From Thermodesulfobacteriota bacterium (lineage in GTDB: Bacteria > Desulfobacterota > Desulfarculia > JACQYL01), in NCBI GenBank assembly GCA_963675595.2, contig CAXXLZ010000002.1, positions 2,560,001-2,624,000 on the forward strand: 64,000 bases of DNA. Direction: 5' to 3'. The translations under genes were made by a program, and so were the position numbers. The stretch's first letter is position 1, and each line of letters opens with the position of its first letter. Below, piece after piece: positions 518-56,136 of the stretch. The notes under the pieces are model-generated. The model saw only the letters and a list, made by a program, of their open reading frames with translations. It was not told the DNA's origin and made no database searches.

Positions 518-1663
518 ATGATTGACGTGCCGGTACCCCGAGAACGACTGCAGTTCTTTCTTTCCAAGCTGGACCTAAGTCGCGGCGACATGGCGCATCT
601 TGAGCCTTACCGATTGCGCTTCGCGGCCAAGAGCGACGACTTCGCTTCCTTCTTCACGGAATACTTTCTTCAAATCCCCCAAACCCGAATCGTCCTGGAA
701 CACGAGCGGCAACCCAATCGTTTCGAAAAAGCCCTGGCGATCTGGTTCCAAAGATTTTTCGAAGACGAATTTGCCGCCGGTTTTCTGGAATATCTCTGGA
801 AAAGCGGTCTCAAACACGTTGAGATCAATCTGGATCAGCGATACGTGAATCTCGGTTATGCGATCGCTCGTCAGTTCTGCCATGGAATGGTCCGAGAGCT
901 GGTTCCCGCAGAACATCGGGAACAAGTGTCCAAAGTTATCGACAAGATGCTCGATTTCTGCGTTCTTGTCGCCACGGATTCATTGATATCGGCAACGGCG
1001 CAGTGCGATGTCGAGGTGATCCGGGGCATTTCTCATCAGGTGAGAAACCCGGTGACGGTGATCGGCGGGAATATTCGGAGGCTGCAAAAAAACCTGGATG
1101 CGGGCAATCCTGTGTACCAGACGTACGAAGCCATTATGCAGGAAAATAGACGTTTGGAGAGAATGGTATCCGACGTGGGTGTCTATACCGATATTTTCCG
1201 CAGAGAACCGGTATTTAAAGAAGAATCCCTCTTAAAGATACTCCTGAAAGCGGTCAAGGAACTCGAACACAAATTCGCCGCCGCCGTGATCCCGATTTCC
1301 TTGGACCTGAACCCCCAACTGACCCAAGTGTACGGGGACGCCCGAGACCTGGAGTCCATGTTTTATTATCTGCTGGAAAACTCTTTTGAGGCAGTGAGCG
1401 GCCGGGGAGGAGAAATTCGGGTCCAATCCATGAAGAGCCCCCTGCAGAACTTCCTGCGGATACGCATATCAAATCCCGGCACCTTGCCCAAAGACGAAAC
1501 CATGGACAACCTGTTCGCTCCGTTTTATTCCTCCAAACCCACAGGTACCGGATTCGGTCTGCCCATCGCCTCCCTTGCCGCCCGCAAGAACCTGGGAACC
1601 CTGAAGCTGGAATCCGCGTCCGAAGGCGTGCTCTGCACGATTGAATTGCCTTCGGCCCGCTGA
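518..1663 (+). CDS. Globin-coupled sensor histidine kinase (sensor globin + HisKA + HATPase)
   Basis: Globin-like N-terminus with GLKHVEINLDQRYV (proximal His motif); H-box SHQVRNP; N-box LLENSFEA; F/G2 box FAPFYSSKPTGTGFGL; no TM segments. Confidence 0.8.
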   Translation: MIDVPVPRERLQFFLSKLDLSRGDMAHLEPYRLRFAAKSDDFASFFTEYFLQIPQTRIVLEHERQPNRFEKALAIWFQRFFEDEFAAGFLEYLWKSGLKHVEINLDQRYVNLGYAIARQFCHGMVRELVPAEHREQVSKVIDKMLDFCVLVATDSLISATAQCDVEVIRGISHQVRNPVTVIGGNIRRLQKNLDAGNPVYQTYEAIMQENRRLERMVSDVGVYTDIFRREPVFKEESLLKILLKAVKELEHKFAAAVIPISLDLNPQLTQVYGDARDLESMFYYLLENSFEAVSGRGGEIRVQSMKSPLQNFLRIRISNPGTLPKDETMDNLFAPFYSSKPTGTGFGLPIASLAARKNLGTLKLESASEGVLCTIELPSAR

Positions 1664-18604: not shown

Positions 18605-18640
18605 TCCCAAGGCCGGTGGGCGCGCCCACCGGCCTTGGGA
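18605..18640. repeat. Perfect 36-bp palindrome
   Basis: TCCCAAGGCCGGTGGGCG|CGCCCACCGGCCTTGGGA, 18-bp arms with no spacer. Confidence 0.9.
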
Positions 18641-18657
18641 CCCCAGGAAGGTGCGGC

Positions 18658-19056
18658 GTGAGCTTGTTCGACAAAATCCTTCAGCGAAAGCCAAAGAAGG
18701 GCATCGAGCCCAATCTCCTGTCCTTCTCCCATTTTCTCCAACTTTCCGAGCAGGAAATCGACGAGTTGATCCGAGAGAATCCCAAGTGGTTTCAGGAGCT
18801 ACCCTATGTCGGTGCCATGAGCAAGGAAGCGGCCCGCAAACTCGAAATTGAAAAACGGGCCATGTGGCGGCGCATTATCTATGACGCCAAGCGTTCCAAC
18901 CTCCCGGCCCTCAGATGGGAATGTTCCAAAGACGAGAGAGTGTGCCTACAATGTGCCGAGTTGTGCGGTCAGGTCTTCCAATTCGAGGACTACGAGAGGC
19001 TCGACGCGATTCGTATGCATGTGGGTTGCAGATGCAACCTGACGCCGGTGAGATAA
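18658..19056 (+). CDS. Hypothetical protein with phage minor head (MuF/SPP1 gp7-like) C-terminal Cys/His motif
   Basis: LRWECSKDERVCLQCAELCGQVF...HVGCRC resembles the MuF motif W....D.R.C..C..l.G..f...H..CRC; GTG start at 18658. Confidence 0.6.
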   Translation: MSLFDKILQRKPKKGIEPNLLSFSHFLQLSEQEIDELIRENPKWFQELPYVGAMSKEAARKLEIEKRAMWRRIIYDAKRSNLPALRWECSKDERVCLQCAELCGQVFQFEDYERLDAIRMHVGCRCNLTPVR

Positions 19057-32634: not shown

Positions 32635-35505
32635 TTATCCGAGGAGGGACAGAATAGTCTGAGGCATGGCGTTCGCCTGGGCCAGCATGGCGGTGCCCAC
32701 TTGCTGGAGAATCTGATATCGCGTCATTTCGGAAATGGCCGACGCCATATCCAGGTCGCGGATCGTAGATTCCGCCGCGAGCTGATTCTCCTCCTGGATC
32801 GACAGGCTGGTCAGCGTGTGATCCAAGCGGTTAATGTATGCTCCGAGTCTGGCTCGTTCCGAAGAGACCAGCTGGATGGCCGCATCAATTCGTTCCATGG
32901 CCTGGTAGGCGGAAGCTTGATTCACCACCAGGACTCCGTTCACTCCCAGGGCCATGGTATCCATTTGGGCGATATAGGCGTCCATGGTCTGGCCCTGGTT
33001 GGCGCCGATCTGGAAATCCGTGGTGGTGCTCACCACATGCAGGTATTCCGTCACTTCGCCGGGCGCGCTGTAGAAGTCGATCTCCTTGGTCGCCGAATTC
33101 CAGGAGAAATCGATGTCCACATTGGAATCCACGATAAGGTCCACGCCCTGAATGACGCCGTGCAGGATGTTGTCGCTTACGGTGTCCACGCCGATGAGCT
33201 CTCCGGTGTGGGCATTGAAGACCTGAACCGTCAACGGATCCACCGAGTCGTTCGGGTCTTGTATGGTGGCGAGACTCAAGGCGGTCAGCACATCCTCTTC
33301 GGCGCTGAAGTACAGGTAGCCGCCGGCGCCCATCTTGGGGGAACGGATGACGATGGTTCCCGGGACCGCTTCCTGAGTATCTTCGGTGGGGTTGACCACC
33401 AAGTCGGTCACGTGATTGATCCCGTTGGAGTCTTTGGCCTCTCCGAGATTCAGGCCCGCCCAGCCCTGCGCGGTTTTCTCGAGGCTGATGATCTGCTCGA
33501 TCTTGTCCGCCAGTTCCTGAAGCGTATCTCCACCGTCGATATAGAAGGAAGCCTGATCTCCGTTCGCCGTGTAGATGTCGATCCATTTGCCGTTTTCACC
33601 CAACACGAAGTTCCCGTCGGAGTCATAGAACCGATCGATTTTGGAGAGCAGCGTGTCCGGACCCGCCGCGTCTCCCGAGCCCAGGACCGAGACGTTGGTG
33701 CTCTGGCTCTGGAAGACGGAACCGATAGTCACATCCATGGAGCCGAACTCGATTCGTCCTTCCGAGTCCATGGAGGCATAGGTCAGCGTGGTCGTCTCGC
33801 CTTCCGGAATTGCCCCCAAGTCTTCCCACAACCCGTGGTTGAAGGTCGGGTAATCCGCTCCTGCATATCCTTCCCGGCTATCCCAGTCGCCGTCGGAATT
33901 CTGCACGCGACTCCATTCACTGGCGGGACCGGTCAGACGCACCATATTGCCGGTGGCCGCTGGAATCTGATCCTGAAGTCCGAGCAGGAACTTGTCTCCC
34001 ACCTTGAACGTGCCGTTGAAATTCAGGCCGAATCGGTTCGCCGTGGAGCCCTGATCCATCAAGATGGTGCTTCCTTCGGCATAGTCCACGTAGGTGGTCC
34101 AGGTGGCGCCTTCGTCCCAGGAAACTCTGAAGTCCACAGAGCCGCTGGCACCCTCACCCGTGACTTCAATGATCACGTAGCGGTTTTCCGTCACGGCCAC
34201 GCTGCTGCCGGCTATGTCGATAGCGGTGATTTCGGCCGTTGATTCGTTGTTCCGGTAAGCGCCCAGCAGGAAGCCCATGTCCGATGTGGTCAAAGCCGCC
34301 AGACCGCTGCCGATGTCCGAATTGGCCACGGTGACGATGTCGTAGTCACCCGCCGCCAGACTGGAGGCATTGGATACGGACTCAAGCAACAGATTATCCG
34401 CCGGATTGGAATTGTCCGTTCCGAAGGTGCCTGCCACACCGGAGTTCACGCTGCCCGCGGCAACGGTAAGCAGATCGAAATCGCTGAATTTCACCGCATT
34501 GTTGAAAATGCTGGAAGAGGATGAGCTGAGTTCCCCGCCGGCCCAGTTGTGAATCTCATTCTGCCATTCGGCCGTTCCCGAACCCACTCCGCCCCCGACG
34601 GACGTAACCAGGTTCAAAGTGTAGTTGTCGCTGCCGTCCGTGGTATCCTTCGAGCGGATGATGATATCCCCCGACGAGAGGAGCTCCGCCTCCACATAAA
34701 GACTGATGGTGGCATGCTCGTTGATGCTCCGGACCAGTACTTCGGCATCGGTGAATCCATTGACGCTGCTTCCGGGAACACCCGAAAGGGAGGTGACTGC
34801 AATATCGTAATTATTGGACGGGTTTCCGTCGAAATTGAACCGGAAGGTCAACGTTCCCCTGGCGGTCACTTCGCCGTCGGTACCCAGGTTGAAGCGGAAC
34901 TGATTCGGGCTGCCGTCTTCCCTCTGTGAAATGGCCCCTTCCTTGATCTTGAAGATGTCCGTCTTGAGGACATGATTGGGAAGAGGTTCGGCGCTCTTGA
35001 CCAGTTTATAGTTGCCCTCGCTGACCTGTCCCCGAATGACGGCGGTAATGTCGTTGCCGTCCGTGCTCCAGAGGGCCGAGGCGGAACCGTCCAACAACTT
35101 CTTTGTATTGAATTCCGTCGAATAAGCGATACGGTCGATTTCCTCTTTGAGCTGATCGACCTCCGCTTGAAGTTCCTGTCGATCGTTGCTCGTGAGGACG
35201 CCGTTGGCCGCCTGCACGGCCAGTTCCCGCATCCTTTGTAGAATCGAGTGAGTTTCGCCGAGTGAGCCTTCCGCCACCTGAAGCATGGACTGAGCATCCA
35301 TGGCGTTCCGGCTGGCTGTGGCAAGACCGCGAATCTGCGTTCTTAATCTCTCGGAGATGGCGAGACCGGAAGGATCGTCGGCTGCTGAGTTGATTCTGAG
35401 CCCAGTGGAGAGGTGGGCCAAGGCGTTCTGCAGATGTTTGGTGCTACCGACCAAAGCCTGCTGGGCCGTGAAGGCGGCCAAATTGTTAACAACTGAAAGT
35501 CCCAT
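32635..35505 (-). CDS. fliC: Giant flagellin (956 aa)
   Basis: N-terminal [21 protein letters not shown]...[13 protein letters not shown]...[11 protein letters not shown]; C-terminal FQIGANQGQ...[11 protein letters not shown]...IRDLDMA...AMLAQAN; AAGGAGG RBS before ATG 35505. Confidence 0.95.
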
Positions 35506-35532
35506 GGTTAATCCTCCTTGATAAAGTACACG

Positions 35533-35595
35533 GGGGAGTCCCTTCCCCAGCGCCGACGAACGGCTGCCCGACCGACGGATAGGCGTCCCTTTGCC
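35533..35595 (-). promoter_or_regulatory. Two GGA-loop hairpins (CsrA/RsmA-type sites) in the flagellin leader
   Basis: GGC-AAAGGGAC-GCC (35582-35595) and GGGGA-AGGGAC-TCCCC (35533-35548) upstream of the SD. Confidence 0.55.
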
Positions 35596-35766
35596 CACCC
35601 GTCTTTAGTCAGGCGGCGGCATCGGCAGCAACAGGCCGCATCTTCGCTCCGAAATCCGAAACCGTCCGCCTGGTTTTACTTCACTATTCATTCTGTTCCC
35701 TCGTTGGCACCGTCCGGCTGTTTTGATTCCATTTCATTTCAGTAAGAACGGTGCTGTTTGCTTTTT

Positions 35767-42625: not shown

Positions 42626-45391
42626 TTGCCGCAACGGGGATCGACCTTGATCGTTTTCGGGCGGCACTTGCGTATTCCCACCGGTTTCCCACTCAAGAAC
42701 GCGATCCTGCTTCTGGTTCTTTCAATCGTGCTGTCGCCGGCAGGCAGGCTTTCTTGGTCGAAACCACCGGTGGGTGTCGCTCTCTTCGAGCAAGACGACG
42801 CATCCGATTTACGATTGCGATTTCAAGCCGTTCGTGCGGTGGACGAGATCCGGAAATTGGGACTTTCCGCACAACTCCGCATGTTAAGCCGAGTCTCTCA
42901 GGGAGACGATCTCTCCGTCGTCCCTACTCTCCTGGCTTTGATCGTTGAAGAGAAGGCCGCGGAGGCTTGTCCCGAAATCTTGTCTTTGCTCGGTTCCGAC
43001 TCCCTGGAAGTTTTCACACCCTCCGCCTACGCCTCGGCTATGCTGGGTTGCGATTCCGCAGTCTCCAAGTTGATAGAAAAGGCGCGAAATCGAGACACTT
43101 CCGAGGAATTCGCCGTTGTAGCGGCACACGCCCTCGCTCGTTTGGGCGGGAAGCTCATAGAAGCTCAAGGCGAAGAGGAGAACCCGGATGACGCGAAGGC
43201 GCGTGTTGAGGCCGTAAAGAGCGCACTCACGGAAATGCTTCTACGACCTTCCACCCGACTCCGCGCGGAAGCGGCGGGCGCTCTGAGTTATTTGGGCGTA
43301 ACCACGGGGGACGGCGGCATTCCATCCGATCTTTGGCAGGACCCCGAATTCGGCGTCCTCGCGGGAAGGCTGTTGCTTCCGCCCGCGACGGCCGACCTCG
43401 CCAACGCCCAGGACTCGTGGATCGCCCCGCGCCGTGATCCCACACGTTTCTCCGCGGTCCTCGATTCCGAGCTCCTTTCTCGTGAGGCGGCGGAAGCCGA
43501 CAACCGGCCGGGGAGCCTAAAAAATTCGGAGAAGGCATGGCAACGAGACACAGAAGCCTTGTCCGCCGTCAGGCGCTCAATTCCGGGGGGCACCGCACCG
43601 TTGCGACTTCCCGGCTACATTCTGGTCGCCCCGGACCGTGATCGGCTACCATGGGTCGAAGACCTGATGAACGGCCCCATGAACGCACCCATCGCCCTCA
43701 TGGAATGGGCGGAGGATGCTTTGAACCGGAGTTCCGAAACCGAAATGTCGGCGGTGGATTCGCTGAATCGGATTGTGAAGCACGCTTGGTCGTTGATCTA
43801 CCCCATCGGAAACCGGAACGAAAGGAGTGTGTCGGCGATTGAAGCGCCTCCCCCTGTTCATTCATCGGGAATCAACCATGAGGAGCCCTTTGACGGCGAA
43901 CCGGGGTCTTTGGACCGGCAACGGTGGAAACGGCTGCACGATATAACGGCCCGATTGATCGATGCGGTGTCGGACTTGGAAATACAATGGCGCAACGCGG
44001 TCTCCTCCGTGTCGGAAGAGGGTCGCCGACGGATGGAAGAACTCGGAAACCTGGACCCTTCCCTCGTGGTGCTCAATTCCGAGACGATCGAAACCGCCTC
44101 GAAACTCTTCAACGAATTGGACCCGACACCCGTCCTGACGGCGCAAGTCCGGCTTTTTCGGGTATTGGACGAAGAAATCCCCAATCTCAGAGCCTTTGTC
44201 GGGTGGAGTCCGGGCGGGAACGGCGACTGGGTTGAAGAGATCGAAACCGCTTTGGGCACGGTACGCCTGTATGGTCCCGCCGCCCATGAAATTCGCACCC
44301 CCGCTCTATTGATCATCGACTTCGGTGGTTCGGACTCCTGGACGCGTGACAATGGATCCGGGGATTCCACGTTCGTTCATTTGTACCTTGATTTGGAGGG
44401 GAACGACACCTTCTACAGTGCGGACTATCCGGGACTTTCCGGAGCCGTCTTGGGGACTTCCATCCTGATGGATTTCCAGGGCGACGACATCTATTCCGGG
44501 AGTGTGGGGGCACAAGGAGCGGCCGTTTTGGGATCGGGAATCCACCTGGATATGGAAGGGAACGACCGATATTACTGTGAAAGATTCTGCCAGGGAGCCG
44601 CGCTTTTCGGCGTGGGAATACTCCATGATCGTTCGGGAAACGATCTGTATGAGGCGGGAGGCTCGGCTCAGGGATTCGGAAGCACGAGGGGAACGGGCAT
44701 TCTCCTCGAAGGCGAAGGCAACGATTCGTTCCATGCGGGCGGCCTCGACCCCGACGAAATTCGTGATCCTTCCCATTTCATCTCCCTGGCCCAGGGATTC
44801 GGTATCGGTCTCCGGCCGGAAGAGGAACACGGTGCCTTCTCCGGGGGTATCGGCCTGCTCATCGAACTAAACGGAAATGACCGGTACGAGGGTGACGTTC
44901 TCGCTCAAGGGTTGGGCGTCTGGTTCGGGATGGGCGCCATCCTCGACTTTGGCGGAGAGGATTCATACTCTTTGTTCAACTACGGCCAAGGAATGGGCAT
45001 GCACGCAGGGGTCGGCCTGCTGCTGGATCTCGACGGCGGGGACCGATACAAGGGCCGCCACCACGCCATGGGATCCGGACTGGACCGGGGCATGGGGATT
45101 CTTTTCGACGCGGCGGGTGACGATCATTACACGAGCATTTCCGATTCTCTGGGGTCCGGAGTGAAACCCCTCGGGCTGGGAATCCTGGTAGACCACATGG
45201 GAAACGACGATTACACCGCAGAGGTGGGGTTGGGCTACAGCCGCCGGCCCGCCTACTCGCCGAGCCTTTGGCCCACGGGACTCTTCTTCGATCGTGAGGG
45301 TGACGATCGCTACATGGGAAGAGCCGGAAAAGGCCGTGACGGTTTCTATTGGATTCAGAATCGTGGCGGCTTGGGAGTGGATGGAGGATAA
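42626..45391 (+). CDS. Exported protein with HEAT-like N-terminus and C-terminal Gly/Asp-rich repeat array
   Basis: Hydrophobic N-terminal segment; HEAT-like helices (LRAEAAGALSYLG); 12 [DE]xxGxDx[YFW] repeats. Confidence 0.75.
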   Translation: MPQRGSTLIVFGRHLRIPTGFPLKNAILLLVLSIVLSPAGRLSWSKPPVGVALFEQDDASDLRLRFQAVRAVDEIRKLGLSAQLRMLSRVSQGDDLSVVPTLLALIVEEKAAEACPEILSLLGSDSLEVFTPSAYASAMLGCDSAVSKLIEKARNRDTSEEFAVVAAHALARLGGKLIEAQGEEENPDDAKARVEAVKSALTEMLLRPSTRLRAEAAGALSYLGVTTGDGGIPSDLWQDPEFGVLAGRLLLPPATADLANAQDSWIAPRRDPTRFSAVLDSELLSREAAEADNRPGSLKNSEKAWQRDTEALSAVRRSIPGGTAPLRLPGYILVAPDRDRLPWVEDLMNGPMNAPIALMEWAEDALNRSSETEMSAVDSLNRIVKHAWSLIYPIGNRNERSVSAIEAPPPVHSSGINHEEPFDGEPGSLDRQRWKRLHDITARLIDAVSDLEIQWRNAVSSVSEEGRRRMEELGNLDPSLVVLNSETIETASKLFNELDPTPVLTAQVRLFRVLDEEIPNLRAFVGWSPGGNGDWVEEIETALGTVRLYGPAAHEIRTPALLIIDFGGSDSWTRDNGSGDSTFVHLYLDLEGNDTFYSADYPGLSGAVLGTSILMDFQGDDIYSGSVGAQGAAVLGSGIHLDMEGNDRYYCERFCQGAALFGVGILHDRSGNDLYEAGGSAQGFGSTRGTGILLEGEGNDSFHAGGLDPDEIRDPSHFISLAQGFGIGLRPEEEHGAFSGGIGLLIELNGNDRYEGDVLAQGLGVWFGMGAILDFGGEDSYSLFNYGQGMGMHAGVGLLLDLDGGDRYKGRHHAMGSGLDRGMGILFDAAGDDHYTSISDSLGSGVKPLGLGILVDHMGNDDYTAEVGLGYSRRPAYSPSLWPTGLFFDREGDDRYMGRAGKGRDGFYWIQNRGGLGVDGG
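44306..45313 (+). repeat. Protein-level tandem repeats of ~26-27 aa (QG.G...G.G.L.D..G.D.Y)
   Basis: DFGGSDSW, DLEGNDTF, DFQGDDIY, DMEGNDRY, DRSGNDLY, EGEGNDSF, ELNGNDRY, DFGGEDSY, DLDGGDRY, DAAGDDHY, DHMGNDDY, DREGDDRY. Confidence 0.85.
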
Positions 45392-45406
45392 CAAGCCGGG
45401 AATGGC

Positions 45407-45431
45407 GAGGCGGACGCACGGCATCCGCCTC
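45407..45431. terminator. Hairpin between convergent operons
   Basis: GAGGCGGA, 9 nt, TCCGCCTC. Confidence 0.35.
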
Positions 45432-45443
45432 CCGTCGGGTATA

Positions 45444-46385
45444 TTACTTGAATTTCCTTTTCAAAGCCTGATAACGATCCAACAATTGGCTTTGCTGTTT
45501 CCAGTCGGGATATTTGGCCAGTTCGGCCATGGTCTTTTCGATCCGCTTATCGAGAGGCGGGTGCGTGGAAAACCATGAGCCGCTTTTCTCCGATTTGTCT
45601 TCCCTGGCCTTCAGACTCCGCAACACCTCGATCATGCCGTTGGGGCCGTACCCGGTCCTGTAGGCGGTTTCCATAGCCGACGCGTCCGCTTCGAATTCCA
45701 TCCTCTGGTCCAGCCCTTTGTCGAACAAAACCGTCTGAAGATCTCCGATCATATTCTCGAACTGCTGTCCCTTTTCCCCTTCCATGGCGGCTGCGGTGAC
45801 CTTGCCTACTCCTTGAAGGAACCGCGCACGCCTGATGGACTGGAGAGCGTGCTTATGGCTCACATGGGCCACTTCGTGGGCCAGCACATTGGCGACCTGT
45901 GCTTCGGTCTGCATCATTTTCATCAGCCCATAGCTGATGAAGATGATGCCGCCGGGGCAACTGAACGCATTCAACAAATCGCTGTCCACCACCACGAACC
46001 GATAGGGAATGCCGGGTCGGATGGAATTATCGGCCAACGCCGTGCCCAACACGTTGACATACTCCTGAAGGTCGGGGTTGTCCACGGGCATGCCGTATCT
46101 CGCGAATCCCTCCAAAGCCAGGCTCTCCCCGATGGTACGCTCCGTGTCGTAGTCGATTTCCATGCTCCCCTCCACCAAGGAGCCGATTCCCTCGAAAAGC
46201 TTCCGCTCTTTGGAGCCTTCTTTGGTCAACGCATCCAGCAACCCGGCCACACGCAGTTCCGAGGAAGCCGCCGATTTCTCGACCGACGCCTCTTGTGTTC
46301 CGGTCCGATCCACCGGCGCCGCGGGACAACGCCCCCCAGCCGAAAGGGCAATGAAAGCCACGATGAGCAGGCATCCATATTTCAT
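45444..46385 (-). CDS. M48-family (BepA/LoiP-like) zinc metalloprotease, exported
   Basis: NAFSCPGG.IFIS.GL, LAHEVAHV (HExxH), EFEAD, STHPP...RI; signal peptide MKYGCLLIVAFIALSAG. Confidence 0.9.
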   Translation of the reverse strand: MKYGCLLIVAFIALSAGGRCPAAPVDRTGTQEASVEKSAASSELRVAGLLDALTKEGSKERKLFEGIGSLVEGSMEIDYDTERTIGESLALEGFARYGMPVDNPDLQEYVNVLGTALADNSIRPGIPYRFVVVDSDLLNAFSCPGGIIFISYGLMKMMQTEAQVANVLAHEVAHVSHKHALQSIRRARFLQGVGKVTAAAMEGEKGQQFENMIGDLQTVLFDKGLDQRMEFEADASAMETAYRTGYGPNGMIEVLRSLKAREDKSEKSGSWFSTHPPLDKRIEKTMAELAKYPDWKQQSQLLDRYQALKRKFK

Positions 46386-46404
46386 GGTTGTTCCTTTCCA
46401 AATC

Positions 46405-46917
46405 TCATTCAGCGTATTCACCCACTTTGCCGTCACGCAAGAAGCTCGTCACCTCTTGCTGAGTCACTTTCACGGCCAGGACTTGATCCAGAGCTTTTCT
46501 GTACTTCTCGGGTGTTTCCTTCATGGACGCGTATTTCTCGGTTTCCTTGGAGAGACCGCGCATACTTCGAGCCGTATCCGCCTCATCCGCCTTGATGCCG
46601 CTCCCTCCCAAAGCTGCGAATAGATCCGCCCCTTCCCTTTTTACTTCCGCGGAAGGCGGCGTATCGGAGACCCGGCCTCTGTACACCCAACCCTTTTGGC
46701 CTTCCGAGGTCTTGACACGGTACCACTTATCGTCCTTTTCCATCACCGAAAGTTCGGCTCCCAAGGGCAGCCCCACCACCGTTTTCGAAGAGGCTTTCTT
46801 ATCTTCCTTGAGTTTGGTTCCCTCGGAGGTCACGTACATCGTTTCCTGAGCCACAGCGGATGACAACCAGCAGACCAGAAATAAAGGGATCATCCATGCG
46901 AGATTCCTTGGTTTCAT
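46405..46917 (-). CDS. Exported SH3b-domain protein
   Basis: Signal peptide ending SSAVA; LPLGAELSVMEKDDKWYRVKTSEGQKGWV; GAGGAGG RBS. Confidence 0.8.
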   Translation of the reverse strand: MKPRNLAWMIPLFLVCWLSSAVAQETMYVTSEGTKLKEDKKASSKTVVGLPLGAELSVMEKDDKWYRVKTSEGQKGWVYRGRVSDTPPSAEVKREGADLFAALGGSGIKADEADTARSMRGLSKETEKYASMKETPEKYRKALDQVLAVKVTQQEVTSFLRDGKVGEYAE

Positions 46918-46990
46918 GTAACTTCTCCTCCTCTTTGTCCTTCGGCGATAACCGAGCCGCGGTCCATCGCCCACTGCATGATTTGCTCAC

Positions 46991-49900
46991 CTATTGATAA
47001 TCGCCGACCAAAACGAAGGCCCCCCAGTAGCCTGGATGGGGAAAACGATTCTTCACGTGAAGCATCGCCTTGCGAAGACTTTCCGACTTCTCTTCTCGAG
47101 TGTACTGCCGGTAGAACTGTTTGATCAACATGCCCGTGGAGATGTCGCTGACCCTCCAGAGAGTGGAAATCAGGGCGTGGGTTCCCGCATATAAAAAGGA
47201 ACGGTTCATACCGATGACATCATCGCCTTTGGTCACTCGACCGAGGCCGGTCCGACAGGCACTCAGAACCACAAGATCCGCATTGATGTCGAGCCCGAAC
47301 ACCTCACCGGCTTCAAGATTCCCGTCCTCTTTCAGGTCCTTGACGAGCTTTACCGAAGAGAACAGCGGATTCACCGGATCGAATTCACCGTGAGAAGCGA
47401 AGTGAATGATGCCGAATTTCCCGATATTCGCGACGATCCAGCTTTCCGTGGCCTTTTCACCGGTGAGTACCGTCACGTCCGGAAAATTCCAGTGAATGGT
47501 CTCCACCTCACGCTCCGCAAAGGGCAGTTCGAGCGCCGGGTTGTCAAGAGCCGGGTTGCCCACGGCGAGTACCCGCGTATTCTTCGCAGCTCCCCTTCTC
47601 TCCAATGTATATTTGAGCACGCCGGCGCTGGGGAGGTAAAAAAGCGGATACCGATCCACGAGATAGGACTTCCCGTTGAATAGGACGGCAAAGGAAAGGT
47701 AGTGCAGAGGTCCGTGGGGTACGATGCCCAAGACCCGCACTCCTTCCAGAGAAGGAAGTTTGCCCAACAACAAGTCGTAAATCTCTCGAGACCTGTCTTC
47801 CAGAGGCTCAAGATTCTGAATCATGCGCCGGTAACCGAGTATGGTTTCGCCGAGGCTCTCCCGCCCCAAGGGGGTTTGCACCAACTCGAAAGAACCGGAA
47901 CGAACCACCCAGCACAACACACGATCCGCTGTAACATAATAAGATAACAGCGCCGTGTCCGCGGCGATGAGTCCCCGAACCTCATCCAGGGTCATGGGGG
48001 CCACGCTCACCAGGGAGGCCAGTTCGGGATTCCGGGCTTGAATCTCCAGGAGGAGGTCCCGATAATCATCGTTCAGCCCTTGAAGCGCCTTGTCGAACAC
48101 TTCCTTTTCCGCTGGAGAATTTGCCTGCGCCGACAATGTTTCCTGCTCCCGTATGCGGGAACGCAGAGCATTCAAACGGTCGTAGTGTTCGCGGTCGGCT
48201 CCCCTCAGGGAAAGCTTTTGGTTCCCCAGCAAATCGATGAGGTTTCGAGCCCGGGACCGTTCCGCCGCGTTGAAGGCGTCCTGAGGCAATCCCATATCCA
48301 CGAGCACTTCCACCAAGGCCTCATAGACCGCCGTCTTGTTCGAAATGAAGCCGTCCTTGAGACGGTCCAGTTTGATTTCCGCCCGCATCCCCTCGATGAC
48401 GTCCACCGCCTGAGCCAGCAGGTCTCTAGCCTCCGCCCGTCGTCCCGCTCCAAGTTCGATCCGGGCCAAGCCGTATAGCGCGCGCCATATGCTCTCTCGG
48501 AGCGCCATGGAACGGGCGGCGTCCAATGCCCGGCCGTAAACCTCGCGGGCTTCGGACTCCCTGCCCAAGTCAACCAAAGCCTCCGCCAGAACCAGCAAGG
48601 TTTTCGATTCGTTGATCCGGTTTCCTATAGCCGAGGCTTCACCAAGGGCTTCCTCGAGCAACGGAACCGCCTCGTCGGTCCGACCGATACGCATGAGGGT
48701 CTGGGCTTTGTTCCTCAAATCGTAGGCCACGGCCCAGCGGGACTTGAGTTTTCGATCGATGGCGAGGGCCCGCTCCAAAGAGTCCAAAGCCTCGTCGTAG
48801 CGCCCCATCTCCCTGTATACCAGTCCCATATTGTTCAGCGTGGTGGCGACTTCATCCTTCCTCACCCTTAGCTTTTCGGCTCGTTCCAGACCATCTTCGA
48901 GGTCCCGCAACGCGCGTTCGTTGTCCCCCAGCGTCCACCAAGTCAGGCCGGAAGTATTGAGCGCGATGACCTGCTCCAAGGCCCAGTTGTGCTCACGCGC
49001 CAGGTTATGGGCGGTACGCTGCAGTTCGAAGGCCTCCTGGTAGCGGCCTTGAAACCAAGCGTTGTCGGCCTGTTCGATGATGATCCGCGCCCTCAGCCTT
49101 TCTTCCTCCGGATCATCCCGTATCAAATTCAGAGCTCGGGCGTATCTTTCGTCCGCACCGGGAAAGTCCCCCAGCAGACGACAACAACGTCCCATATCCA
49201 GGAGCATGCCGGCCATGTCCGCCGTGGCGCCCATCCCGCTGTAGATTTCATAAGCCTTCTCGTAGTTCAGCTTGGCCCGTGCGTAGTTGCTCAGCCGCAG
49301 GTCCAAAATCCGGCCGATCCCGACATATTGTCGGGCCAGGAGTTCCGATTTTCCCAGCTCCGCACTCAGACTCGCGGCGTCCTGAAAACGTTTCAGCGCT
49401 CGGTCGTATTCCGCGGCGTTTTCCAGCACCACTCCCAAGTCGGCCAATGCCTCGGCGTACAGTTCTCCAAGGTCCAGGTTCTCCATCATTTCGGCCGCTT
49501 GCTCCAAGGTGGAAATCGCCTCCTCGTACCGCTCGGCGCGCGCAAGCACCAGCCCCAGCCTCAGAAGCGCTTCCGCGTGTTGTTCCGAGTCCGGACGCAC
49601 CCCTTCCCAAAATGTGGCCAGGGTCCGGGCGTATTTTTCGGCCTTGTCGAGACGGTCGATGCGAAAAGCGCTTTCCCTGGAATATTTGTATAAGTCGGGC
49701 AGATAGTTCTTCAGCGCATCCACTTCCAGCGCCACATCGAGAGCGCTCTCGAAATCCGCCAAGGCGTCGCCGAATTGATTTTTCCGGTAGGCCCCCACTC
49801 CTCCTCGCACATAATCGTTGAATCGATTCTTCCCGAATTCGACGGCGGCTTCCGGCTCCATGCCCCAATAGCCCGAGTAGAACCAATTTGAGACGGTTTC

Positions 49901-52900
49901 GCCTTCCGCAAGAGCGGCTCGATAGCCTTCCAACGCGGATCGATCTTCATAGCTTTTCAGGAACGTCGCCACAAATGATTTGATCTCTCCTTGAGACGGC
50001 GACCACAGAACCGTGGGACAGCCCATCAGCGAAAGGAGGTGCGCCGGGGCATAGGCCGACCCTTTAGGCGGTAGAGACAGCATCATCAGAGAAACATTGG
50101 ACAACCGCCCGGCCAACCTTTCGAGAGGAAACCGCACGCCTCCGGACAACTCGAAGGCGGGAAAGGTTTCTCCTCGAACGCCCGGACGCGTCGGCACCGT
50201 GACGGCCAAATAGGTTTTCGGGTTGAGGATCACGGTATGGGATTCTCGCAAGCGGTCCAACATTTCGGGGAAGTCGGAACCCGCGCCCATGGTTGTGACC
50301 TCGTATCCGGCTTCCCGAAGCGACCGGCTGAGTTCGTCCGTGGCGGACGATTCCGGTAGTCCGATCATGAGCAGATTACGTTTGAAGGGCTTGCGGGAAC
50401 GAAATGAACGCACCAAGTGAGTCGCGTTCAAAGCCGTCGGCGTTCCCGACGACAAACCGAGAGCCCTCGGCTGTTCATAGGCCCAAATCTCCAAGGTCCC
50501 TTCCCGCGAAACGGGCCTCCCACCCGTCTTCCATTGAGTGACCTGGAAATCGTCCGGACTGAGGGAGAACGCCAACCAAGGCTCCGGATCGCCTGGAAGA
50601 GCGTACCAGCGGACGCAGACCCCGTTGTCGGGGAGGCTCTCCATGACTTCCACCGCCTCCACCGGCATGGGAACAAAAGCGGCAAGGAGGCCTTTGGAAC
50701 CCGGCTCGTTCAAGAACCGAGCGGCTCCCTCAATCTCCCGTTGATATGTTTCCACCAAAGCCTTGAGATCAGGATCCTCGCTCGACTCCCTTCCTTCGCT
50801 CACCGCCCGTTCCGCAACCTGGTCCAAATGGGCCGACAATCCCATTACAATCAGAATGCGGTTCCGTTCCTCCTCGGTGGCGCCCAAGGCTGCGGGGCGG
50901 GGCAGGCGTTCCCGGTCCTTCCCGAGCTTGAGGTCCAGAAGTTCCCGCTCCTGATCCGCCCGAGTAGAAAGGTATTCCCGATCTTCTTCCGGTGCCTGTT
51001 GGAGAGCGCTTTCCAAGTCTCGAAGCGTGAGAAGTCCTTTGTAGGATTTCGCCGCGAGCTTTCGGTCCTCCTCCCCGACACCCGCGAGGAGTAAGGGAGT
51101 CAGTCGTTGGACTCTTTCGATCTCCGAGAGCCGTTCAATCAGATTAAAGGCATCCTCCGACAGTTCTTGATCCAACATTTCTTTGATCAGCGGCGCGAAT
51201 CCCGAAGTGACTTCAAGGGGTCCGCAGTCCGCCTCGAAAAGAGGAACCTTGCCCAGCACTTCGAGCGCTTCACGATATCGTCCCAGGACGAGCAGGGCCC
51301 GCCATTCCAGAGCGGGAAGCAATCCTTTGCGTGCGGATTCCAGGGCCTTCTCTGCGAAGCTTCGAGCTTTTTCCCGGTCCCCGAATTCCTCAACGCCCCG
51401 GCAAAGATTCAGCAGCACGACGCTTCGCAGAGCCAAGGCCTTCCGATTCCGGGCAACGGAAGGGGAATCGAGCAGTGTCTCCGCTCTGAAGAAGTGCCCC
51501 ACGGCCGATTCCAGGAGAGCGGCCTCTTCCGCCCGGCCTTCAACATCCGTATCCTTCGCCCCGAGCGCGGCGTTCAACAGGAAAACCCCCATGGCGTTAT
51601 GGTAGGAGGCCGGAATCAGATTCTCGAGGACGGTGGGGAATCGAGCCATCAACATTGTAACGCGCCGGTCCAGGGCCATGAGCCGCGAACGTCGGCCTTC
51701 TCCTTTTGAGGATTCGGAGAAATCCCGTGAGAGGCACAAAGCCATGTTGGACACGTTGACGGCCGAACTGACGGGGTTGCCCAGACGGAGCGCGATTTCC
51801 GCCGACCGCTCGAAATCATCAAAGGCGTCCAGAGGTCGCCTGCGAGCGAAAGCGAGAAGCCCCGCCCGGTGGGCCAGCAAAGAGACACCGTAAAGGTCCT
51901 CTTCTCGAATCGGTTTGCCTTGGGGATACCGGGCCCATTCCCGTCTTACCGCATCTTCCGCGAGTTCCAGCGCCCCGAGTTCCGTCTGAATGCGTGCCTC
52001 GAAGGTCTCCGCCAGTCTCTTTTCCTGTTCCTCGCTGAAGCCGTACAAAGCCTGTGTGGCTCCGGTCTTGTCCAAAGCCACATCCAAGGTAAGGCTTACA
52101 AGGGCGCTCTGTTCTCTGGTGTCCTTTTTTGGGGGAGCGGTCCCATGAGCGGAAAGCAGGTCCAACACCTCACGGAAACCTTCAAGAGACTGTTTCAGCA
52201 GTTCCTCCCGAGCGGCTCCGGACATGCCCCCGGCTTCCATGTAAGCGCAATAGGCGGCGGAACGACGATTCTTGGCAAGGTTTTCCTCTCGCCCCATCTT
52301 CCGATTCAAATGGAACGCCTTCAGGAAGGAGTCACGGGCCGCCGCCCACTCTCCGGCTTCCTGGTACGCCAAGCCCAACCGATCCAACATCTCCGCCTTT
52401 AACTCGAGAAGACGTTTCGGAAGTTCCAGCGCCTCCCGAACCCGCTTCGCCATATGGGAAAGGGTTTGAATCGTTTCCTCAGGCTTGTCGAGGATCAAGG
52501 GCGGCAGTTGTTCGATAATCCGTTCCTGCTCTTCAAGCAGACCTTCCACCGCCCGACGATACTCTTCCCAGGACGGGTCGGGAGGCGGAGGCACCGTCCG
52601 CCGACTCACCTGAAAAAGCCGGTCGTTCAGCGCCGACTGTTTAACCGCCATGCCGTCGGCCCGGTCTTTCAGTCCCGGCTCTTCTCGGGCCGGTATGAGC
52701 ACCCGGTCGGAAATATACCGCTCGATGCGCCCGAAAAGCTCCGAGGCTCGACGAGGCTCGATGCGTTCATCGATGAGGTCCAGCGCTTTTCCATAGGCCT
52801 CCACGGGCTTCAGCCGGTCCCCCGACTGAAAGGCCGAAGCGCCGAATCTCCGATAAAACAGGACCTCGGTGTCGGCATTGTCGAAGGGAACTTCTGTTTG

Positions 52901-55552
52901 CGATCGACGGGAATAAAGGTCGAAAGCTCGTGCGTACCGACCCAGCAGGAAATGGATGTTTCCCATGTTCAAGAGCAGATGGGCCCGGTTCTCCGGATTA
53001 AACCGAGGGTTGTTCAGAAAGTAGGCTTTTTGGTAGGATTCCAGAGCCTTTTCCAAAAAGTCGGGTCGATGATAGACGGTTTCGAGCACCTCGTATACAT
53101 ATCCAAGGGTCTGGTGGAAAAATTCGATTTGACCCTGTTGCCGGATGCAGGATTCAAGCAGGCTTTGTGCTTCCTCCAACGCGGGCTCGGTATCGAGATA
53201 GGTGAGGCACAACCCTGCGGCGTATCTCGCCGTCACGTCGTTGGGTCGTTCCTTCACGCGTTTCCGGTATTCTTCGAGTACCGAAGTGATTTCTCCCTGA
53301 GCGGCCGCGCACTTGACATACCCTCGGTGCGCCTCCACCAAGTCCCATTCCTCCCGAATGAGATTCCGAAACATGGATCGGGCGGAGGGAACCTCTCCCA
53401 GGCGATACAGAAATTCCGCCGCGGCAACGGACTTCCGGATGTAGCCCTCGCGAGCCAATCGATAGACATAATCTTCATAGGGCCTGATCGATATTTCTTT
53501 TTCATAAAGGTCCAATGCCCGGCGAAAGCGCTCTTCGCGGTATAAAATCTCGGCCAGGGCCAGTCTCGCGGCCGCAGTCTGATTGCCGTACGGGAGAAAA
53601 TAATCCAGTACGTTGCGATAGGCTTCCTTGGCTTTCGACCATTCGTCGGCGGCGTAATACAGGTCGCCGATCCGATTCCAGGCCCCCATGGCCAGACCAG
53701 GAAGGGAACCCCTGTATTGGTCGGCAATCCCGGAGAGTTGGGATACACGATCTTCCAGTGAAGCCTCGGGCCGTTCCGATATCGCCATGTCCAGAATCCT
53801 CTCGATGGCGGCATCGGACCACTTCCACACGGCCGAATATTTCTCCACGACCTCCACATAGGCCGGGAGCACCAAATCCATGTTCCCCAAAGTGCGATAC
53901 GCGTCCGCTCGCAACACCCGAGCTTCGGCCGAGAGGTCACGTTCTCCGTTTCCTTGCCGGATCACCCAATCCAGCAACCCGACGGCCTCCGATAGACTCT
54001 CGGAGCCCGTCCCGTGTTCCATGAGCAGTACGGCCCGGTCCAAACGACTCCTGAGTGTGACCCGAAGCTCACCGGGAGTCTCCTCGGCTATGCGCGACAG
54101 GCGATCAAGCGCCGAGTTCAAACGGTTGCGCCGCTTCCCATCGGAAGAAGCGCCGGCCAAGGCTTTCCGCCCCTCGATGAGAGCGCGACCGAGGCGGCTG
54201 AGGGCCGCTTCGGGGAGGATTTCCGGGTAGGACGAAACTCCTCGGGAGAAAGCCGCGGCGGCGGCCTCCGGTTTGCCGAGGTTGAGGTAAAGATCGCCGA
54301 TGAGGTAAAGAGCCCGGGCACAAAGTGCGCGAGCCTCCGGGAACGCTTCCACCACCCGGTAATACGCCAAAACCGCGAGCAGATCGTCGGGAGGATACTT
54401 GTCCGCGATGCGGGCGGCGAGTTCCATCTGCCCGTCCGCTTCCCGCTCGGTGGGGATTTCCCCAAGTGCGGGGAGAGTCCACACGTTGCCGACGCCGCTG
54501 CGGGAAGACAGGAAATACAGTCGCCCACCCCCCACCATGGGTTGAAGCGCTTCATAAGAAGCCGAAGTAACGGGGAACACGCCGGATTCCGGCGAATGCG
54601 CCTGCGTCCTAAAAACTACCGGCGGGACTTCCCGCCCGCGTTGCGACTCGTCTAAGTCGTGCGATTCAATACGAGTGAAGTAAACGCTTTCCCCGTCCGG
54701 CGACCATTGGGGATACAAGTCTCGAGCCGGACCTTGGGTCAAAGCCTTCGAAACCCCGGTGGCAATATCCAGCAGATAGATGTCTCCGCCCGGATCTTCC
54801 CGGAAGGAGACATAAGCCACTTGATCCCCTCGGGGTGAAAAGGCGGGAAAGGAGCCGTCGCCTCCGGTTTCAAGGACTTCCGTCACCGGCCCGGGGCCTG
54901 TGAGATTCATCAGGGCCAGCTTCCGGAAACGCTCTCCGGGTCTGAGCTGATGAAACACGAGCCGTTTCCCGTCCGGAGAAAAGCTCGGCCATCCGTCTTC
55001 CGTCTCTCTTCCCGTCAGGCGACGAGGCTCGGGCGTTTGCTCGCGGGTGTCCACCAGATAGAGATCGCCCTTGACGTCATGGGCGGTGCCTGCATAAGCC
55101 ACGAGAGCGCCGTCACGAGAGACGGCCGGAGCGTACCGATCCCCGATTCCTTCATCCAGCTTGCGGGGAACCACCACCACGTCGGGATCCCCGGACCTCA
55201 ACCATAGAGAGGAAAAGTCCCGGTCGCGCTCCGTGTAAGCCATCCAACGACCGTCGGGCGTGACACAGGCGTAAGTCACCGGGTCGGGCTCGAAAGAAAG
55301 CTGCACCGGCTCGTTCACCGGGAGCCGCGGCGGCCGCACTTTCGCTTCTTTCTCGAACGGACTTCCCTCGAAATCGCTTGAAACTTCCGCAGTTGGCCGA
55401 GACCACACTTTGGATTTCAAGGACTCCCATGTGGCGCATCCCGAAAAGCACAGAAGAAGGGCGCAACAACACAGCATGGGCCAATAACCGAAGTACCGTT
55501 TGTTCTTCGGTCCCCACCCGACTGGGTCGGCGGACGGACGAAAAAGCCTCAT
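46991..55552 (-). CDS. Giant lipoprotein: TolB-like PD40 propeller + TPRs + pseudo-CHAT + TPRs + CHAT (caspase-like) protease, ~2853 aa
   Basis: Lipobox-like LLLCFSG-C; PD40 repeats PSFSPDG, PAFSPRG, PQWSPDG; many TPRs; CHAT motifs IVPHGPLHYLSF, IIHFASHG, LVVLSACRTGLG, STLWRVSD, HPGYWGAFVLVG; ATGA overlap with the upstream gene. Confidence 0.9.
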   Translation of the reverse strand: MRLFRPSADPVGWGPKNKRYFGYWPMLCCCALLLCFSGCATWESLKSKVWSRPTAEVSSDFEGSPFEKEAKVRPPRLPVNEPVQLSFEPDPVTYACVTPDGRWMAYTERDRDFSSLWLRSGDPDVVVVPRKLDEGIGDRYAPAVSRDGALVAYAGTAHDVKGDLYLVDTREQTPEPRRLTGRETEDGWPSFSPDGKRLVFHQLRPGERFRKLALMNLTGPGPVTEVLETGGDGSFPAFSPRGDQVAYVSFREDPGGDIYLLDIATGVSKALTQGPARDLYPQWSPDGESVYFTRIESHDLDESQRGREVPPVVFRTQAHSPESGVFPVTSASYEALQPMVGGGRLYFLSSRSGVGNVWTLPALGEIPTEREADGQMELAARIADKYPPDDLLAVLAYYRVVEAFPEARALCARALYLIGDLYLNLGKPEAAAAAFSRGVSSYPEILPEAALSRLGRALIEGRKALAGASSDGKRRNRLNSALDRLSRIAEETPGELRVTLRSRLDRAVLLMEHGTGSESLSEAVGLLDWVIRQGNGERDLSAEARVLRADAYRTLGNMDLVLPAYVEVVEKYSAVWKWSDAAIERILDMAISERPEASLEDRVSQLSGIADQYRGSLPGLAMGAWNRIGDLYYAADEWSKAKEAYRNVLDYFLPYGNQTAAARLALAEILYREERFRRALDLYEKEISIRPYEDYVYRLAREGYIRKSVAAAEFLYRLGEVPSARSMFRNLIREEWDLVEAHRGYVKCAAAQGEITSVLEEYRKRVKERPNDVTARYAAGLCLTYLDTEPALEEAQSLLESCIRQQGQIEFFHQTLGYVYEVLETVYHRPDFLEKALESYQKAYFLNNPRFNPENRAHLLLNMGNIHFLLGRYARAFDLYSRRSQTEVPFDNADTEVLFYRRFGASAFQSGDRLKPVEAYGKALDLIDERIEPRRASELFGRIERYISDRVLIPAREEPGLKDRADGMAVKQSALNDRLFQVSRRTVPPPPDPSWEEYRRAVEGLLEEQERIIEQLPPLILDKPEETIQTLSHMAKRVREALELPKRLLELKAEMLDRLGLAYQEAGEWAAARDSFLKAFHLNRKMGREENLAKNRRSAAYCAYMEAGGMSGAAREELLKQSLEGFREVLDLLSAHGTAPPKKDTREQSALVSLTLDVALDKTGATQALYGFSEEQEKRLAETFEARIQTELGALELAEDAVRREWARYPQGKPIREEDLYGVSLLAHRAGLLAFARRRPLDAFDDFERSAEIALRLGNPVSSAVNVSNMALCLSRDFSESSKGEGRRSRLMALDRRVTMLMARFPTVLENLIPASYHNAMGVFLLNAALGAKDTDVEGRAEEAALLESAVGHFFRAETLLDSPSVARNRKALALRSVVLLNLCRGVEEFGDREKARSFAEKALESARKGLLPALEWRALLVLGRYREALEVLGKVPLFEADCGPLEVTSGFAPLIKEMLDQELSEDAFNLIERLSEIERVQRLTPLLLAGVGEEDRKLAAKSYKGLLTLRDLESALQQAPEEDREYLSTRADQERELLDLKLGKDRERLPRPAALGATEEERNRILIVMGLSAHLDQVAERAVSEGRESSEDPDLKALVETYQREIEGAARFLNEPGSKGLLAAFVPMPVEAVEVMESLPDNGVCVRWYALPGDPEPWLAFSLSPDDFQVTQWKTGGRPVSREGTLEIWAYEQPRALGLSSGTPTALNATHLVRSFRSRKPFKRNLLMIGLPESSATDELSRSLREAGYEVTTMGAGSDFPEMLDRLRESHTVILNPKTYLAVTVPTRPGVRGETFPAFELSGGVRFPLERLAGRLSNVSLMMLSLPPKGSAYAPAHLLSLMGCPTVLWSPSQGEIKSFVATFLKSYEDRSALEGYRAALAEGETVSNWFYSGYWGMEPEAAVEFGKNRFNDYVRGGVGAYRKNQFGDALADFESALDVALEVDALKNYLPDLYKYSRESAFRIDRLDKAEKYARTLATFWEGVRPDSEQHAEALLRLGLVLARAERYEEAISTLEQAAEMMENLDLGELYAEALADLGVVLENAAEYDRALKRFQDAASLSAELGKSELLARQYVGIGRILDLRLSNYARAKLNYEKAYEIYSGMGATADMAGMLLDMGRCCRLLGDFPGADERYARALNLIRDDPEEERLRARIIIEQADNAWFQGRYQEAFELQRTAHNLAREHNWALEQVIALNTSGLTWWTLGDNERALRDLEDGLERAEKLRVRKDEVATTLNNMGLVYREMGRYDEALDSLERALAIDRKLKSRWAVAYDLRNKAQTLMRIGRTDEAVPLLEEALGEASAIGNRINESKTLLVLAEALVDLGRESEAREVYGRALDAARSMALRESIWRALYGLARIELGAGRRAEARDLLAQAVDVIEGMRAEIKLDRLKDGFISNKTAVYEALVEVLVDMGLPQDAFNAAERSRARNLIDLLGNQKLSLRGADREHYDRLNALRSRIREQETLSAQANSPAEKEVFDKALQGLNDDYRDLLLEIQARNPELASLVSVAPMTLDEVRGLIAADTALLSYYVTADRVLCWVVRSGSFELVQTPLGRESLGETILGYRRMIQNLEPLEDRSREIYDLLLGKLPSLEGVRVLGIVPHGPLHYLSFAVLFNGKSYLVDRYPLFYLPSAGVLKYTLERRGAAKNTRVLAVGNPALDNPALELPFAEREVETIHWNFPDVTVLTGEKATESWIVANIGKFGIIHFASHGEFDPVNPLFSSVKLVKDLKEDGNLEAGEVFGLDINADLVVLSACRTGLGRVTKGDDVIGMNRSFLYAGTHALISTLWRVSDISTGMLIKQFYRQYTREEKSESLRKAMLHVKNRFPHPGYWGAFVLVGDYQ

Positions 55553-56136
55553 GGTTTGGCCGACCACGTTCCGTCCTCCAGTTGGATCCGCTCTCCGGGG
55601 AGAGCCGTATCTCTGTGGATTTTGGCGAAGACCTTTCTGATTTTGGGATAGTCCTCGGCCGTAAAATTCTCATTCACCTCGATGACTCGTCCCATCACCG
55701 TCTCGCGGGCCGCGTTCACTTGAGTCAGGACGGTCTCGAACTCTCCCGATTGGTAACGTGCGGCGAAGTCCTTCAAGTCTTCAGGAACATTTTCTTTTTG
55801 CAGCGGAAAAGCCGTCAGCAGGCCGTCGAGATTCTCGCCCACCCAACCCAGACGCTTGAAACGATCCACGTCGTCCGCGTGAAACGCCAGGGTCTGCATG
55901 GCTTCCTCGGCGTGTTTGTATTCCCCACTGTGCCTGGGCGGCGTCTCCACACGTCCCATGGGATCCACGCCTCGAACCGAAGAAACCAGCAAGAGATCTT
56001 TGTTCAGGGAATTGTAGGAACCCAGTACCTGGTTCTCCAGTGCGGTGCGTTCACTCACCACGTTCACATCCACCTTGGCCAACGTACAGCCGGCGGCAAA
56101 GAGCAAAAGGAGGCAAACGAATCGAAATTTCGCCAT
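55549..56136 (-). CDS. DUF1318 (YdbL-like) lipoprotein
   Basis: Lipobox LLFAAG-C; GWVGENLDGLL, VNAAR, C-terminal PGERIQLEDGTW..K match the DUF1318 pattern. Confidence 0.7.
   Translation of the reverse strand: MAKFRFVCLLLLFAAGCTLAKVDVNVVSERTALENQVLGSYNSLNKDLLLVSSVRGVDPMGRVETPPRHSGEYKHAEEAMQTLAFHADDVDRFKRLGWVGENLDGLLTAFPLQKENVPEDLKDFAARYQSGEFETVLTQVNAARETVMGRVIEVNENFTAEDYPKIRKVFAKIHRDTALPGERIQLEDGTWSAKP

Follow-up and report, generated by a model that had tools for sequence, protein, structure and literature searches.

A complete CHAT-type module lacking the catalytic dyad precedes the C-terminal protease module in a giant TPR-CHAT protein of Desulfobacterota

A giant tetratricopeptide repeat (TPR)-CHAT gene was analyzed in a 64,000-nucleotide stretch, hereafter the window, of a Thermodesulfobacteriota bacterium genome (GCA_963675595.2, contig CAXXLZ010000002.1, positions 2,560,001 to 2,624,000). 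The gene is a single open reading frame (ORF) at window positions 46991..55567 of the reverse strand, on which all features described below lie unless stated otherwise, and encodes 2858 aa counted from GTG. In this one chain, a complete CHAT/separase-type module (the middle module, aa 1445-1903, 49859..51235) precedes a live one (aa 2400-2858, 46994..48370). Judging by its sequence, the middle module is catalytically dead, and the loss is family-wide. Pfam detected a PD40 propeller, many TPRs, and only one CHAT stretch (aa 2592-2856). A dead CHAT copy at ~49860-51170 had been proposed in a first-pass annotation by pairing motifs of the two regions. All 14 quoted motifs were found in the ORF where they had been placed; the module is real, although it starts near 51235 and not at 51170.

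Direct sequence comparison did not reveal the relationship between the two modules. Self-BLAST found no internal repeat at E<1 in the giant protein, and the Smith-Waterman score of the middle against the C-terminal region (63) was not above chance (500 shuffles, mean 38, max 65). The suggested profile check against CHAT (PF12770) was also negative, with no match in the middle region of the window protein or in orthologous middle alpha/beta regions (0/61). A profile of the middle family gave two chance matches among PDB sequences and 68 matches among 1.84 billion representatives, all with the two-module architecture or fragments of it and none an ordinary CHAT protein. Family profiles of the middle and C-terminal modules were colinear over 363-367 columns, weakly (probability 49-54%, E 1-2e-4); restricted to the alpha/beta part, the match had a probability of 35% over 61 columns. 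In an Atlas feature search, CHAT was indicated at 0.94 (106-122 features in common), which we regard as a lead only.

The decisive evidence for a CHAT-type fold was provided by structural models together with relatives that link the two families. The AlphaFold model of aa 1440-1916, based on an alignment of 35 proteins found by a search with aa 1440-1920 (window protein included), had a pLDDT of 88.4 and a pTM of 0.89. All 22 Foldseek matches at E<=0.001 were Craspase/Csx29, DdvA, or separase. In a wider structure search, yeast separase 5u1t ranked first (VIA Z 19.7, root-mean-square deviation 3.8 A, 299 aligned), followed by DdvA (Z 17.4) and Csx29 (Z 16.5-17.4, with deviation 3.7 and 315 aligned at Z 17.4); other structures included 7n6g (Z 15.4) and 3h13 (Z 8.1). 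By model comparison, the middle module has a caspase-like alpha/beta fold and a pseudo subdomain after TPR helices, and the structural check proposed in the first-pass annotation thus came out in its favor. Bridging relatives were retrieved with the C-terminal module (best 120 of 1014 matches). They are laid out alike, and their middle module is less eroded; in P0165 (source name: bacterium I07) and P0170, this module matched the C-terminal module of the same protein by BLASTP with E 2e-40 and 3e-41 over 464-473 aa. Pfam counted a second CHAT stretch in three of the seven distant relatives scanned (P0165, P0170, and P0151). The middle-family profile of the window's clade matched a profile built from the less eroded middle modules (20 sequences; probability 99.3%, E 4e-20), and the latter matched the C-terminal profile (probability 100%, E 2e-43). 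Source names among the best 120 of 1014 matches extend the two-module layout to Nitrospinota.

Csx29's CHAT domain is made up of a pseudo subdomain (424-551) plus an active one (552-751), which are halves of one domain (available parts of 10.1101/2022.08.17.504292 and PMC10028731). The middle module aligned to 7y9x 311-750 and 5u1t 1066-1629, and the live module to nearly the same ranges (7y9x 280-750 and 5u1t 1058-1626). Because both align across the whole pseudo and active unit of Csx29, each copy is a full two-subdomain unit. The models therefore indicate that a whole module is dead, rather than the pseudo subdomain known from separase and Csx29, which the live copy already has. The earlier analogy with the pseudo-protease fold of these two proteins fails on this point: the middle module spans both subdomains and stands ~495 aa before a live module with a pseudo subdomain of its own. 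The dead module comprises the last-TPR helix, a helical insert, the pseudo subdomain (aa 1622-1724, 50396..50704; delimited by secondary structure and alignment), and the caspase subdomain (aa 1725-1903, 49859..50395). Its pseudo subdomain is shortened and lacks two helices present at aa 2569-2600 of the live module. In DdvA, as described in the accessible text of PMC11506125, three helices that are said to make the pocket complete are missing.

The register of the dyad was fixed by the bridging relatives. The His position is occupied by K1784 (50216-50218) and the Cys position by P1833 (50069-50071), so both predicted losses were borne out, although the proposed pairing of SHTVILNPK with GIIHFASHG was one residue out of register. 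The pairing of WFYSGYW with FVLVGDY was right according to the same relatives, though hhalign placed the FVLVGDY counterpart on HPGYWG. Loss of Cys was consistent among homologs: Cys was present in 0/91 de-duplicated members, 0/58 representatives, and 0/24 divergent modules, and His in 0/91, 1/58, and 2/24, respectively. These sets overlap; the 58 representatives cover both positions (10 of the 68 profile matches were dropped because they do not), and the 24 divergent modules were hand-picked. Also dropped were 2/97 middle regions (one split gene, one truncated), four duplicates, and one fragmented locus without an ORF of 1300 aa. In P0102, a middle-module His was considered as a retained catalytic residue and rejected, since its two relatives have Pro there; it was used only for register. 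No relative with both modules active was seen among the best 120 of 1014 matches. The motifs LPF-x-E-x-E and W-x-V-x-D, present in 79/79 live modules, are absent from middle modules, and the models suggest a Cys loop ~11 residues shorter in the dead module of the window than in the live one. As the pocket motifs were lost along with the dyad, the substrate-binding role proposed earlier is disfavored in its classic form.

The C-terminal module is presumably an active cysteine protease. Its dyad, H2726 (codon 47390-47392) and C2771 (codon 47255-47257), lies exactly where the first-pass annotation had put it, and both residues are kept in 79/79 C-terminal copies. PF12770 matched with 189 bits (cut-off 24). 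The pseudo subdomain occupies 47597-48031 and the caspase subdomain 46994-47596. The AlphaFold model (pLDDT 81) matched Csx29 (Z 32-34), separase (Z 29), and DdvA (Z 26.6). A helix with the motif ERSR-x-R is invariant (E2436/R2437/R2439/R2441, 79/79). Among PDB sequences, the C-terminal profile matched only DdvA, weakly (E 0.03).

The dead module is under purifying selection: across 11 independent pairs its dN/dS was 0.11-0.27, a range close to those of the propeller (0.09-0.19) and the first TPRs (0.10-0.27). Conserved positions include the charged last-TPR helix, R1653, E1698, the motifs ATH-x-x-R and RKPF, and core Gly and Pro residues; those of the pocket are not conserved. The charged helix (E-x-L-S-E-I-E-R, 51113..51136) is the counterpart of ERSR-x-R in the live module. 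In matches not selected on this motif, E1482 and E1484 were each kept in 50/51 and R1485 in 51/51. We infer by analogy that this helix may correspond to the relay element of Csx29, in which activation is passed on to the active site by the eighth TPR (available part of PMC10028731).

In a 17-row tree, the middle modules formed one clade (support 100/99), which points to a single loss of catalysis, and they have a common G-x-x-G-M junction into the second TPR solenoid. The two modules may have arisen by internal duplication or by fusion of two related genes. A clade of middle and C-terminal modules was neither found nor rejected (p-AU of 0.47; 17 rows, long branches, unrooted, with an outgroup picked for its closeness to the C-terminal module). 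Of the duplicated whole TPR-CHAT module proposed earlier, the whole-module part stands, with duplication as one of two possible origins. Middle modules scored similarly against C-terminal modules of their own family and against single-module TPR-CHATs (mean bits 123 vs 132, 121 vs 133, and 64 vs 67). A match of the first to the second TPR solenoid (probability 95%) was discarded as proof of duplication; it occurred in several registers and reflects generic TPR likeness.

Along the giant protein, the order is signal peptide, TolB-like propeller, TPRs, middle module, ~495 aa of TPRs, and active CHAT module. The likely start codon is an ATG at 55552, which overlaps the upstream stop codon (ATGA). 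A hydrophobic signal stretch (55436..55480) ends in a lipobox-like Cys44. The lipobox pattern occurs in 9/52 N-terminally complete locus ORFs, and orthologs mostly carry cleavable-type signal peptides (judged by eye, without a signal-peptide predictor); the protein is probably exported and periplasmic. The PD40 propeller (aa ~85-372, 54452..55315; Pfam E 3e-15, TolB matches in PDB, TIGR02800 below cut-off) is followed by the first TPR solenoid with helical inserts (aa 373-1444, 51236..54451). The second solenoid (48371..49858), near-fixed in length, connects both modules. Full-length orthologs have 2700-2900 aa. The gene is broken into at least two ORFs at loci L006, L011, L052, and L058 (frameshift, decay, or assembly error).

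Eight two-module proteins of 1583-1747 aa (P0163, P0175, P0177, P0178, P0182-P0184, and P0188) have neither the propeller nor the first TPRs and keep the order dead module, TPR, live module; P0182, P0183, and P0188 have interrupted second solenoids or live modules. Their N-termini matched the N-terminus of a lipoprotein encoded next to the giant gene (probability 95%, E 5e-8, 38 columns; ~55978-56094 in the window); in these short forms, that segment is fused ahead of the dead module.

One genome scan yielded 63 loci, mostly from Geobacterales, Desulfuromonadales, and Desulfobacterales and including the named isolates Geobacter sp. OR-1 and four Geomonas strains; the search pattern was derived from the E-x-L-S-E-I-E-R motif, which biases the sample. 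The gene order is conserved (counted only where the contig leaves room): an AsmA-like gene (48/50), a DUF1318 lipoprotein gene (52/53), the giant gene, an SH3 gene (39/48), and an M48 gene (39/48). In the window, the AsmA-like protein (56207..60148) has ~1230 aa from the likely ATG and an N-terminal membrane anchor; matches to DUF748, AsmA, and YhdP were all below cut-off. The YdbL-like lipoprotein (55549..56136, 195 aa) matched DUF1318 with 27.4 bits (cut-off 27), and its C-terminal half matched Escherichia coli YdbL (probability 88%), as would a component of the YdbH-YnbE-YdbL bridge. Downstream of the giant gene are a secreted SH3b protein (46405..46974, Pfam SH3_3) and an M48 zinc metalloprotease (45444..46436, 105 bits) with an intact HExxH motif (40/40). 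No sigma factor was present among the conserved neighbors, and Cas proteins were absent from the 43 window ORFs scanned with Pfam and from the recurrent neighbors. Among PADLOC 2.0 anti-phage profiles, a generic TPR model was the sole match of the giant protein, and the six other queries had none. A terminator scan of 45200-47100 was near chance. A recurrent 846-aa neighbor proved to be aconitase B.

At five loci, small ORFs are inserted between the giant gene and the SH3 gene (L025:14468-14758, L029:14650-15084, L030:14487-14777, L042:14271-14829, and L061:14491-14778). By eye we take them to resemble toxin-antitoxin genes (RelE-like, PIN-like, AbrB-like).

With middling confidence, we propose a role without catalysis for the dead module, as a joint or relay that controls a periplasmic protease acting on AsmA-type envelope-bridge partners. 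The giant protein would be an exported separase-type cysteine protease with two complete TPR-CHAT modules in series, the first of which would have lost catalysis once, early, and been kept as a folded joint. The dead module would cap the first TPR solenoid, and its last strand would lead directly to the second, with the live protease at the end of that second solenoid. The live dyad would probably be resting and switched on via the TPRs, as in Csx29. The dead module would fix the geometry and transmit conformational input from the N-terminal part, that is, the propeller and TPRs here and the lipoprotein anchor segment in the short relatives. The likely job would be regulated cleavage or turnover of the AsmA-like and YdbL-like bridge components encoded in the same operon, with the S-[IV]-R-G-[LV] linkers of the lipoprotein and the SH3 protein as candidate cut sites. 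These sites are a lead only; MALT1 has R|G cleavage sites. Separase cuts after Arg (available text of PMC11506125). The joint or relay role is favored because the pocket is erased from a module whose framework and charged helix are conserved, and because the dead module stays together with the second solenoid and the live protease regardless of what stands in front. In E. coli, YdbL levels need balance and DegP degrades YdbL in vitro, according to the available parts of PMC11126948 and 10.64898/2026.03.16.712125.

Several observations weigh against this proposal. The dead module has higher dN/dS than the live one in 11/11 pairs, and mean identity among 67 near-complete proteins is 35-37% for the dead module vs 56-72% for the live one (72% in its caspase subdomain). 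Erosion differs by lineage, as expected of a mere spacer, and motifs of the dead module conserved in Desulfobacterota are not kept in deep relatives. With single sequences compared to profiles, the AsmA-like protein matched E. coli YdbH with a probability of 1% and the lipoprotein matched YnbE with 8%. SH3 and M48 are missing from 9/48 loci and the lipoprotein from 1/53. The motif common to the lipoprotein and the SH3 protein was noticed post hoc and could belong to M48 instead. The eight short proteins were chosen by eye ahead of the profile test, and single-sequence scores of their N-termini were weak (best E 9e-4; 4/8 at E<1).

It is unlikely, though worth weighing, that the dead module serves as a docking site that binds a partner or substrate (SH3 protein, lipoprotein, or M48) and presents it to the live module. 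A clade-specific VP-x-R loop (50183-50197) lies beside the lost His and is conserved (P1792 58/62, R1794 50/62), and in the short relatives the dead module is ~170-200 aa from the lipoprotein-like segment. Two operon proteins, moreover, have a common motif, S-[IVM]-R-G-[LVI], found in the lipoprotein (52/53; S-V-R-G-V, 55963-55983, in the window) and the SH3 protein (39/40; R-S-[IVM]-R-G-L, 46549-46569) and absent from 44 AsmA-like and 67 giant proteins. Docking is opposed by the erased canonical pocket, by the deletion of pseudo-subdomain helices in the window's clade, and by Nitrospinota-type modules that do not have the VP-x-R loop.

A dead module that folds back as an autoinhibitor or pseudo-partner to block or tune the live one, for which cFLIP is a model, seems improbable. 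The module-to-module spacing is near-fixed, at 488-504 aa in all 82 two-module proteins scored (a few duplicates included), and the active sites of DdvA face elements of the partner protomer (as given in the available text of PMC11506125). Each caspase subdomain, however, already forms one sheet with a pseudo subdomain of its own, and no conserved pseudo-substrate stretch is common to the lineages. Prediction of a complex of the dead and live modules reached a median of 0.22 (mark 0.32) and was not used as evidence.

We give a similarly low chance to an entrenched relic, in which the first protease died after duplication or fusion and is kept only because its folding links the two solenoids. 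This would agree with dead-module dN/dS values which, for most pairs, are 2-3 times the live-module ones and with the progressive loss of helices and loops lineage by lineage. It is at odds with the near-invariant charged residues in the Desulfobacterota clade and with retention of the dead module in short forms without the first solenoid; nor was any relative seen that keeps both solenoids without the dead module, in searches biased towards finding that module. New chemistry at a catalytic or metal site built from conserved His, Glu, and Arg (H1717 56/62, H1843 51/61, E1698 51/63, R1653 58/63) is highly improbable, as none of these residues is invariant, Gln, Tyr, or Asn replaces them in places, and deep relatives do not have them.

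The joint or relay reading can be extended to a hitherto undescribed envelope machine that would span Desulfobacterota, Nitrospinota, and other phyla. A separase-like protease with a dead twin would be physically part of an AsmA-type intermembrane bridge, and the dead module would couple the bridge's state of assembly to the live protease, with S-[IV]-R|G as the cleavage site in both the YdbL-like lipoprotein and the SH3 protein. We consider this extension doubtful; if true, it would mean proteolytic, caspase-style gating of intermembrane lipid transport.

The giant protein resembles Csx29/Craspase in having a TPR solenoid followed by a CHAT of pseudo and active subdomains. Csx29 has one CHAT unit, whereas the giant protein has two, the first dead in both halves, as well as a signal peptide and a propeller; NF041237 scored 38 bits (cut-off 300). 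Separase, the best match of the dead module, likewise has an alpha-solenoid with pseudo and active protease subdomains, but is a single protease unit, eukaryotic, and securin-regulated (available text of PMC11506125). DdvA of Myxococcus xanthus is also a periplasmic bacterial TPR-CHAT in a resting state, according to the same text; it differs in that it keeps its dyad, has one CHAT, and is a transmembrane anti-sigma factor, with no conserved sigma neighbor at the giant loci. Like stand-alone pseudo-caspases (cFLIP, cyanobacterial pseudo-orthocaspases, and the central-pair chains 7n6g_1N and 9ijj_B), the middle module has a caspase fold without catalysis. We take 7n6g_1N to be CFAP46, inactive. 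To our knowledge, no stand-alone pseudo-caspase combines, in series within one chain, a complete dead TPR-CHAT module and a live one, and separase has no second dead unit within its solenoid. The characterized TPR-CHAT proteases known to us (Csx29, DdvA, HetF, and separase) have one protease unit and act in defense, signaling, or division.

The E. coli ydbH-ynbE-ydbL operon has the same order of an AsmA-like gene, then lipoprotein and DUF1318 domain. In the window, by contrast, one protein combines lipoprotein and DUF1318, the AsmA-like protein is longer than YdbH and was not matched to it, and the giant protease, SH3, and M48 are added. There are precedents for pseudo-caspases and for pseudo subdomains. 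A TPR-CHAT module that is dead as a whole and precedes a live one, with its gene in an operon of AsmA/YdbL type, did not turn up in our literature search. This search, which covered top-ranked matches in mostly open journals and their main texts, found no publication on the two-module architecture or the operon. Because Pfam misses the dead unit in the window's clade, annotation presents two-module proteins as ordinary proteins with a single CHAT, and the number of whole-module pseudo-CHATs is probably underestimated. Through the operon and the fusion, a caspase-family protease is connected with AsmA/YdbL-type envelope genes.

Other features were recorded in the window. A 121-aa ORF without Pfam or NCBIfam match (60236-60601, forward strand) is divergent from the AsmA-like gene. 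Convergent with the operon and behind a TonB-dependent receptor gene is a 921-aa ORF (42626-45391, forward strand) with C-terminal Asp/Gly-rich repeats of the G-x-D-x-Y type; it had no Pfam, NCBIfam, or PADLOC match and was not found beside the 63 related loci. A long flagellin of 987 aa (32635-35598, reverse strand) has ~730 aa between its N- and C-terminal helical domains. Amid housekeeping genes, a phage Mu F-like domain is encoded by an isolated 146-aa ORF (18616-19056, forward strand), and a protoglobin-coupled histidine kinase is encoded at 518-1663 (forward strand).

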